From: a virus
Reading direction: 5' to 3' (one strand)
Virus genome (UHGV): UHGV-0212075
Length of the DNA: 14,519 nucleotides
Positions 12,902-13,144 of this stretch are shown piece by piece (the first letter of the stretch is position 1; each line of letters begins with the position of its first letter). A program made the translations under genes and the position numbers. The notes beneath the pieces were generated by a model, which saw only the letters and a list, made by a program, of their open reading frames with translations, ran no database searches and was not told the origin of the DNA.

Positions 12902-12976
12902 TGGAGCGGGTAGCGGGAATCGAACCCGCATCATCAGCTTGGAAGGCTGAGGTAATAGCCATTATACGATACCCGC
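12902..12976 (-). tRNA. tRNA-Gly (anticodon UCC), glyT-like, phage-borne
   Basis: Minus strand GCGGGTATCGTATAATGGCTATTACCTCAGCCTTCCAAGCTGATGATGCGGGTTCGATTCCCGCTACCCGCTCCA folds as a cloverleaf: 7-bp acceptor stem, anticodon stem TCAGC/GCTGA, loop CTTCCAA (anticodon TCC), T-loop TTCGATT, 3' CCA encoded. Confidence 0.9.
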
Positions 12977-12979
12977 ATA

Positions 12980-13055
12980 TGGTGCCGACTACCGGAATCG
13001 AACTGGTGACCTACTGATTACAAGTCAGTTGCTCTACCTGCTGAGCTAAGTCGGC
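12980..13055 (-). tRNA. tRNA-Thr (anticodon UGU), thrU-like, phage-borne
   Basis: Minus strand GCCGACTTAGCTCAGCAGGTAGAGCAACTGACTTGTAATCAGTAGGTCACCAGTTCGATTCCGGTAGTCGGCACCA: acceptor GCCGACT/AGTCGGC, anticodon stem ACTGA/TCAGT, loop CTTGTAA (anticodon TGT), T-loop TTCGATT, CCA encoded. Separated from tRNA-Gly by 3 nt. Confidence 0.9.
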
Positions 13056-13116
13056 ATTGGTTCCTCAGGAAAAATAAAAATGACCGCGCTTTACATCTCC
13101 CTTGGAACCGCAGGGA

Positions 13117-13144
13117 ATATTAATGAGGACAGATACTTTTTCAA
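13117..13144 (-). promoter_or_regulatory. candidate sigma70 promoter driving the tRNA pair / late leader (possible PR'-equivalent)
   Basis: Minus strand TTGAAA (plus 13139-13144), 16-nt spacer, TAATAT (plus 13117-13122), about 55 nt upstream of the tRNA-Thr 5' end in an AT-rich region. Hexamer match only. Confidence 0.3.

Follow-up and report, generated by a model that had tools for sequence, protein, structure and literature searches.

A thrU/glyT-like tRNA pair with a predicted promoter of its own in the late region of a lambda-like prophage

Results

The DNA analyzed here is a stretch of 14,519 nt from the virus genome UHGV-0212075 (hereafter, the window), the features of which are read on the minus strand. 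Exactly two tRNA genes were detected in the window by ARAGORN, both on the minus strand: a tRNA-Thr(UGU) and a tRNA-Gly(UCC), which are separated by a spacer of three nucleotides and are referred to below as the Thr-Gly cassette. Both genes score far above the gathering score of 29 of the Rfam model RF00005 (Table 1) and, apart from these two tRNAs, no Rfam model reaches its gathering score anywhere in the window. A first-pass annotation, made from the sequence alone, had described two tRNA genes 3 nt apart in the orientation of the late genes. The ARAGORN calls and the minus-strand position of the late genes agree with this description, and the high scores remove the concern that the genes might fare poorly in covariance scoring. 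The recognition of tRNAs by the E. coli threonyl- and glycyl-tRNA synthetases (ThrRS and GlyRS) depends on well-established identity elements, the list of which reportedly goes back to Giege et al. in 1998. The tRNA-Thr sequence carries G1:C72, C2:G71, G35, and U36, and the tRNA-Gly sequence carries G1:C72, C2:G71, G3:C70, U73, C35, and C36. Together with the anticodons and the encoded 3' CCA, these elements are consistent with chargeable tRNAs in both genes, and we regard the pair as real, host-derived, and probably functional.

Comparison with the E. coli operon thrU-tyrU-glyT-thrT-tufB (sequence L006) revealed how closely the two genes resemble their host counterparts. The phage tRNA-Thr is identical to thrU at 75 of 76 positions, the sole change being U16 to C in the D-loop, while the tRNA-Gly is identical to glyT at 73 of 75 positions. 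The two changes in the latter, C6 to U and G to A at linear position 66 (canonical 67), are compensatory and convert the acceptor pair C6:G67 into U6:A67. Both genes share their anticodon, anticodon arm, identity elements, and encoded CCA with their host counterparts, whereas the promoter, the leader, C16 in tRNA-Thr, and U6:A67 in tRNA-Gly set the phage pair apart. The genes are also differently arranged: the host operon separates thrU from glyT by tyrU and a 116-nt spacer and continues with thrT and tufB, whereas in the phage cassette tyrU and the host spacer are cleanly gone and only the 3-nt spacer remains. The homology to the host is confined to the tRNA bodies and starts at the tRNA 5' end, without any host flank; 5,421 of 5,426 complete E. 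coli genomes match there over the tRNA bodies only. The resemblance to thrU and glyT, the direct adjacency of the pair, and the compensatory change at position 6 of the Gly acceptor stem, all noted in the first-pass annotation, thus held up on alignment. The possibility that the window is the host thrU-tyrU-glyT operon itself was rejected, as the pair is flanked by phage genes for a methylase and a holin and the homology ends at the tRNA ends. The host layout, with coaA upstream, tyrU in the middle, and thrT and tufB downstream, is absent; the DNA is that of a prophage.

The window covers the late region of a lambda-like prophage in reversed orientation, with the late genes on the minus strand. 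In the order of transcription, these encode the methylase, the two tRNAs, two holins, an M15 endolysin, the small and large terminase subunits, a head-tail adaptor, a portal, a protease/scaffold, a decoration protein, and the major capsid protein. The stop codon of the methyltransferase gene lies 168 nt before tRNA-Thr, and about the same distance (~170 nt) was found in relatives. The best matches to the window among complete E. coli genomes are 94-96% identical; among viral contigs, L091 comes closest, with ~96% identity across the head genes. The cassette is co-oriented with the lysis genes. The window does not extend to the antitermination gene Q, but relatives with the same module show Q, the late promoter pR', and the terminator tR' on the other side of the cassette. 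Judged by this synteny, the cassette occupies a "moron" slot, in which toxin genes and other morons also occur. Morons are extra genes that are dispensable for the phage life cycle.

Table 1. Features of the late region around the Thr-Gly cassette, in the order of transcription
Feature	Coordinates	Strand	Evidence and remarks
Conserved 65-aa open reading frame, 3' half only; the window starts inside it	14519..14417	minus	homology to relatives
DNA methyltransferase, directly upstream of the cassette	14270..13224	minus	PHROGs 6025 and 67
Predicted sigma-70 promoter of the cassette	13144..13117	minus	TTGAAA (13144-13139), 16-nt spacer, TAATAT (13122-13117); consensus scan, 9/12 matches
Conserved 5' leader hairpin	13109..13059	minus	GGUUCC (13109-13104) / GGAACC (13064-13059) and inner helix; minimum-free-energy fold
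tRNA-Thr(UGU), thrU-like	13055..12980	minus	ARAGORN; Rfam RF00005, 72.2 bits; CCA encoded
Spacer TAT, 3 nt, between tRNA-Thr and tRNA-Gly	12977..12979	minus	sequence
tRNA-Gly(UCC), glyT-like, U6:A67 acceptor pair	12976..12902	minus	ARAGORN; Rfam RF00005, 65.6 bits; CCA encoded
Weak terminator-like hairpin, ~100 nt past tRNA-Gly	12803..12783	minus	scan; also in L001 at 9354-9375
Candidate STnc100/PasD-family small RNA, ending at T1	12706..12511	minus	Rfam RF02076, sub-threshold
Intrinsic terminator T1	12540-12521	minus	AACCGCCGTATCCGGCGGTT then T run; scan; conserved in L001 and L002
Intrinsic terminator T2	12492-12475	minus	scan; conserved in L001
Intrinsic terminator T3, 26 nt before the holin start	12381-12366	minus	GGGCCGCTGGCGGCCC then T run; scan
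Holin, first lysis gene downstream of the cassette	12340..11948	minus	PHROG 198, E=8e-43
Second holin	12012..11683	minus	
M15 endolysin	11686..11303	minus	

Upstream of tRNA-Thr, a consensus scan identified a candidate sigma-70 promoter with a predicted transcription start near position 13110, which we predict to be the cassette's own promoter. Its architecture is shared by the 29 distinct sequences found upstream of arrays that consist of Thr and Gly only: TTGnnn, a spacer of 16 (rarely 17) nucleotides, TATTAT or TAATAT, a further 6-8 nt, and then GGTTCY, while the spacer sequences themselves are unrelated. Arrays of four tRNAs are preceded by TTGCAR-N17-TATTAT with a GC-rich discriminator that abuts the first tRNA, and the same TTGCAR-N17-TATTAT promoter precedes ileZ of the Sakai prophage Sp5, where it follows an apparent methylase remnant. 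Start-site mapping of such a promoter comes from the Sp5 array only, and the Thr-Gly promoter is predicted from its conserved architecture in the 29 upstream sequences. The predicted transcript would begin with a hairpin of ~50 nt that ends 3 nt before tRNA-Thr and is kept in all Thr-Gly-only arrays. Two variants of its outer stem were seen, GGUUCC/GGAACC and GGUUCU/AGAACC. An RNAalifold alignment of 21 distinct leaders revealed covariation in this stem, with pair 9-63 being CG in 10 leaders, UA in 6, UG in 4, and CA in 1; at pair 14-58, GC was found 17 times and AU twice. The leader hairpin matched no Rfam family at E values up to 1.

The first-pass annotation had placed the tRNA pair within the leader of the late operon, flanked by a candidate promoter and the leader terminators. 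Under this model, pR' with its dependence on Q corresponds to the sequence at 13144..13117, its leader contains the tRNAs in the manner of the lambda 6S RNA, the tRNAs are the constitutive short product of pR', and T1-T3 represent tR'. The order of promoter, short RNAs, strong terminators, and holin does recall lambda pR', 6S, tR', and S; phage HK446 carries a tRNA-Asn and a tRNA-Thr between pR'/tR' and S; and the loops of the cassette leader contain AT-rich hexamers resembling -10 elements. The relatives, however, revealed a different layout. In the closest of them, a distance of 1.9 kb separates tRNA-Thr from the upstream Q (L001). A terminator hairpin (CCCGC...GCGGG then a T run) and ~100 nt of following sequence recur shortly past Q in three relatives (L001, L031, and L106). 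In L031 and L106, which encode a lambda-type Q, this terminator is preceded by TTGATT-N16-TAAATT and an AACGAT-like pause element, comparable to the TTGACT-N17-TAAATT...AACGAT of HK446 and lambda pR'. A clear lambda-like pR' and terminator thus stand right after Q and upstream of the tRNA promoter in these two relatives, and L001 has the matching terminator and downstream sequence. In L106, the tRNA promoter and the Thr-Gly genes follow directly, whereas in L031 and L001 a 65-aa open reading frame and the methylase gene come first, inserted between tR' and the tRNA promoter (L001 7396-7744).

Positions 14519..14420 of the window are homologous to the 3' half of the same small reading frame that follows tR' in the relatives, and a terminator-like hairpin (14434..14417) marks its end; pR' and tR' should therefore lie beyond the end of the window, ~1.6 kb upstream of tRNA-Thr. 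Moreover, one and the same module of methylase, promoter, and Thr-Gly genes was found 1.8 to 3.3 kb behind four unrelated Q families (a DUF1133-type, a lambda-type, and two short Q types). Q proteins are specific for their cognate promoters, as is well established for those of lambda, 82, and 21. Since the module stands behind four such families, the tRNA-adjacent promoter cannot be pR', and the assignment of 13144..13117 to pR' was rejected on this ground and on that of the pR'/tR' directly after Q in relatives. In agreement, experimental mapping in Sp5 has located pR' and tR' as well as a start site for the tRNAs that is distinct from pR'. The cassette thus does not qualify as a pR' leader RNA of the lambda 6S or StxS type, which would have a Q-adjacent cognate promoter, a pause element, and an end at tR'; a lambda-like pR', pause element, and tR' stand elsewhere, right after Q. 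Comparison of the Q-proximal leader of L001 with StxS-like and other known RNA families gave weak, chance-level matches only. Taken together, synteny appears to have largely refuted the placement of the pair in the pR' leader, which we now consider highly improbable. The accompanying idea that the tRNAs are made from the late transcript survives in part: as the cassette lies upstream of the lysis genes in late orientation, Q-modified transcription should cross it, but its own predicted promoter is not pR'.

Downstream of the cassette, the region contains 12 terminator-like sites where 3.1 were expected, and the three strong ones (T1-T3) fall within the 560 nt before the holin gene. The first-pass annotation had taken these for the leader terminators, which did not stand: they are located in non-coding DNA with a match to the STnc100 family RF02076 that remains below the family threshold (28.6 bits, with the gathering score set at 47; E=4e-4 for the 1 kb searched). 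An open reading frame at 12421-12783 (120 aa; annotated as "hypothetical protein" in the RefSeq entry for ETEC1732) was rejected as a gene and considered non-coding. It matched no PHROG, its substitutions are spread evenly over the codon positions (14/10/13, 5/5/7, and 12/12/12), it suffers frame-breaking indels, and it spans two strong terminators. A 2026 preprint describes the small RNAs (sRNAs) PasA, PasC, and PasD directly upstream of holin-lysozyme genes in lambdoid prophages, with PasD related to STnc100. The non-coding stretch at 12803-12366, between tRNA-Gly and the holin gene, may likewise hold PasD- or PasA-like sRNA genes. To us, T1-T3 look like sRNA or insulator terminators rather than tR'; they would halt Q-independent transcription before the lysis genes, while Q-modified polymerase would presumably read through them. 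As separate observations on this region, the relative L001 carries TerB-family, DUF3927, and ISEc12 genes between T2 and T3 (9689-13473), and in the relative L005, ompC is inserted in reversed orientation after Q and ahead of the small reading frame (2356-3453). The breakpoints of this cargo coincide with terminator units.

The first-pass annotation had proposed that the tRNAs could supplement the decoding of phage late genes and had suggested a comparison of ACA and GGA usage. The tRNA-Thr4 isoacceptor reads ACA, ACG, and also ACU, and tRNA-Gly2 reads GGA and, by wobble, GGG; both are low-abundance isoacceptors encoded by single genes in the host. We compared 17 genes of the window with 42 K-12 genes, and found ACA at 12.0 per 1000 codons in the former and 5.4 in the latter (p=4e-5) and GGA at 12.8 and 6.0 per 1000, respectively (p=7.5e-5). 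These two codons are thus ~2.2-fold enriched in the window genes, as the annotation would lead one to expect, and ACG and GGG are enriched 2.0-fold and 2.7-fold. The agreement between this codon bias and a supply of scarce tRNAs is moderate.

The cassette proved to be widespread. A 66-nt query spanning its junction, with at least 80% of the query covered, was found in 874 of 5,426 complete E. coli genomes (about one in six), and a search with the Thr-3'/Gly-5' junction identified at least 120 IMG/VR contigs. Among species-representative genomes, the junction was present in E. coli, Shigella flexneri, E. ruysiae, Citrobacter braakii, and Enterobacter hormaechei, with three Thr-Gly junctions in S. 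flexneri. Thr and Gly stand alone at 60 loci, form the 3' half of CAU-Lys(UUU)-Thr-Gly arrays at 37, and that of CAU-Arg(UCU)-Thr-Gly arrays at 18. Across 131 copies, the tRNA bodies are on average 97-98% identical, whereas the 75-nt flanks are only 38-48% identical; in many copies, the tRNAs do not differ from the host genes at all. The Gly 6:67 pair in these copies is C:G in 71, U:A in 54, U:G in 5, and U:C in 1, a pattern that would be expected for a compensatory change passing through a wobble intermediate. The TAT spacer is kept in 132 of 138 copies. This conservation points to purifying selection on the cassette tRNAs.

The same cassette is present, at 95-99% identity and with annotated tRNA-Thr and tRNA-Gly genes, in the deposited phages phi467, vB_EcoS-683R6, vB_EcoM-606R7, vB_EcoS-689R5, PhiR47_1, JLK-2012, and SerU-LTIIb, where it is located between Q or the methylase gene and the lysis genes; these phages differ from the window in their allele combinations and neighboring morons. 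McDonald et al. 2015 (PMC4539685) reported extra copies of glyT, thrU, and argO that occur together in Shigella, flanked by phage sequences, and linked them to mobile genes rich in ACA, GGA, and AGA. The Shigella copies comprise the same phage-flanked gene pair as the window, although neither the promoter and leader nor the U6:A67 allele and the placement with respect to pR'/tR' are part of that description. The Thr-Gly cassette is therefore a common and already described prophage feature rather than a new one.

A related arrangement is the ileZ-argN-argO array of Stx phages (Sp5 and 933W), which occupies the same slot after Q/pR'/tR' and before the toxin and lysis genes and likewise encodes tRNAs for rare codons. 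The separate promoter of the Sp5 array lies between tR' and the tRNAs, and what appears to be the 3' remnant of a methylase gene is found just upstream. The Stx-phage array differs in consisting of one Ile and two Arg tRNAs and in being near-leaderless, whereas the Thr-Gly-only arrays have another promoter and a hairpin leader of ~55 nt; the CAU-Arg(UCU)-Thr-Gly and CAU-Lys-Thr-Gly arrays combine tRNAs of the two kinds. Positions ~1330-1465 of L140 (Sakai Sp5), just before the ileZ promoter, match the DNA directly upstream of the same TTGCAG-N17-TATTAT promoter in the four-tRNA array L124. Judged by eye only, this segment appears to be the 3' end of a methylase gene and, if that is correct, the linkage of methylase and tRNA promoter is old.

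Several further observations concern the composition of these arrays. SerU-LTIIb carries a second copy in which a Thr scaffold bears a UCU anticodon (L003 1122-1194), and other thrU-scaffold tRNAs with a switched anticodon, UCU (annotated as tRNA-Arg) or UUU, were noted in L134 and L089. In the four-tRNA arrays, the second tRNA has the anticodon UUU, UCU, UAA, or AAA, and the UCU (L116) and UUU (L134) forms that were compared share one argO-like scaffold; anticodon shifts thus seem to be frequent in these prophage arrays. In the ETEC1732 prophage (L005 5473-5556), whose module is otherwise 95% identical, the D-arm and T-arm of tRNA-Thr are broken, CACTA replaces CACCA, and RefSeq gives no annotation, while tRNA-Gly is intact. 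Of two matches from distant sources, a 423-nt contig assigned to Corallococcus exercitus (L018; coverage of 0.67 in its name) contains an enterobacterial-type leader and cassette and is probably contamination, while a Saccharibacteria metagenome-assembled genome (L016) fits the search pattern but holds a Cys-Leu-Phe-Gly(GCC) array, which is not the cassette.

Discussion

The explanation that we favor, and hold to be reasonably likely, is that the pair forms a host-derived, autonomous tRNA cassette, composed of its own promoter, a hairpin leader, tRNA-Thr, TAT, tRNA-Gly, and a terminator-rich trailer, which supplies rare tRNAs from a moron slot. In the lysogen, the two tRNAs would be made from the cassette promoter, with T1-T3 keeping this transcription out of the lysis genes. 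Upon induction, genome amplification and Q-antiterminated transcription from pR', which lies outside the window, would boost tRNA output, and the terminators would be read through. RNase P and 3' processing would then free the mature tRNAs for charging by ThrRS and GlyRS, and the additional tRNA-Thr4 and tRNA-Gly2 might serve codons that are 2 to 2.7 times commoner in phage than in host genes.

Several findings weigh against this explanation. The promoter match, taken alone, is at chance level, as the consensus scan returned 3 sites where 3.5 were expected. The lambda orthologues of the head genes, from a phage without tRNA genes, use GGA for 13.7% of Gly codons compared with 14.6% here, and their use of ACA (12.2% compared with 20.9%) is only marginally less (p=0.056); given such near-equal codon use without tRNA genes, any benefit of the cassette would be modest. 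The major capsid gene contains few ACA (2/26) and GGA (4/28) codons, and ATA and AGA are more strongly enriched than the codons in question, yet the cassette offers a tRNA for neither. Finally, some copies are decaying, the tRNA-Thr of ETEC1732 being a pseudogene.

This decay is also what would be seen if the cassette were a neutral passenger, that is, host tRNA DNA captured once and hitch-hiking without function alongside the methylase and lysis modules. The many copies identical to host genes could reflect recent capture or gene conversion, and lambda thrives without tRNA genes. Against such drift stand the far stronger conservation of the tRNA bodies than of their flanks, the compensatory pair with its wobble intermediates, the conserved promoter and leader, the precise TAT junction, and the clean removal of tyrU and the host spacer, and we regard a functionless cassette as improbable. 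A role that would mainly benefit the lysogen, in which a constitutive cassette aids host translation of AT-rich, horizontally acquired genes and not of phage late genes, appears unlikely but deserves somewhat more weight. Its own predicted promoter and the downstream terminators would make the cassette an autonomous unit, the slot is one used by toxin genes and other morons, and the extra thrU, glyT, and argO of Shigella have been tied to the codon demand of mobile elements (PMC4539685). Such a benefit is nevertheless compatible with the tRNA-supplying cassette that we favor, as gene dosage and read-through from pR' would still raise its lytic output.

A further possibility is counter-defense, in which the cassette would make up for, or cushion, the loss of tRNAs to abortive-infection tRNases, notably the OLD-family nucleases of P2-like prophages that exclude lambdoid phages. 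P2 OLD kills mainly via cleavage of the host tRNA-Thr(UGU) (PMC12445682), and Thr(UGU) and Gly(UCC), exactly the anticodons of the cassette, come first among the preferred OLD targets in a preprint (10.64898/2026.07.10.737580), in which phage Thr(UGU) tRNAs, including that of the lambdoid HK446, restored infection. In addition, related arrays add Lys(UUU), a target of PARIS, PrrC, and OLD, often on a non-Lys scaffold. However, the anticodon arms of the window tRNAs are those of the host and keep the paired CNG motifs (CUG28-30/CAG40-42 in Thr and CAG28-30/CUG40-42 in Gly) and the A37 that define OLD substrates, and expression of the host tRNA-Thr(UGU) gives little or no protection (PMC12445682; 10.64898/2026.07.10.737580). 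The OLD-resistant Thr(UGU) tRNAs of T4, T5-like phages, Bas32, and HK446 share the anticodon of the window gene but are divergent, with the altered CNG motifs or shortened anticodon stem that mark resistance (PMC12445682); neither is seen in the window tRNA-Thr, and the Thr and Gly anticodon arms are nearly invariant over the 131 copies, unlike those of resistant phage tRNAs such as that of HK446. The HK446 tRNA sits in the same slot after pR'-tR', but with 50 of 76 positions identical and an Asn tRNA as its partner, it was rejected as a member of the cassette family. A simpler reading of the coincidence is that the scarcity of these single-gene tRNAs makes them a bottleneck in phage translation and, equally, a limiting target for tRNases. 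We therefore give counter-defense in general little credence. More doubtful still is its specific form, in which the cassette is a counter-measure against OLD-type tRNases and the supply from amplified genomes or the allele changes (C16; U6:A67) would sustain ACA and GGA decoding until the late program is done.

As a discovery, the cassette carries little weight, as the pair is annotated in deposited phages, occurs in roughly every sixth complete E. coli genome, and was discussed in 2015. The main use of the present analysis lies in the corrected anatomy, that of an autonomous tRNA unit with a conserved predicted promoter and a structured leader, and in its corrected position: pR'-tR' and the methylase gene come before the unit, and a non-coding stretch rich in terminators separates it from the holin gene. 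The position also bears on the Pas sRNAs, for which the 2026 preprint took nearby tRNA hits in prophages as traces of integration sites; in prophages of the present type, such hits close to the holin gene could instead stem from tRNAs of a cassette that the phage itself carries. Should the OLD link be true, a classic system of phage exclusion would be tied to a cassette that is very common in prophages.

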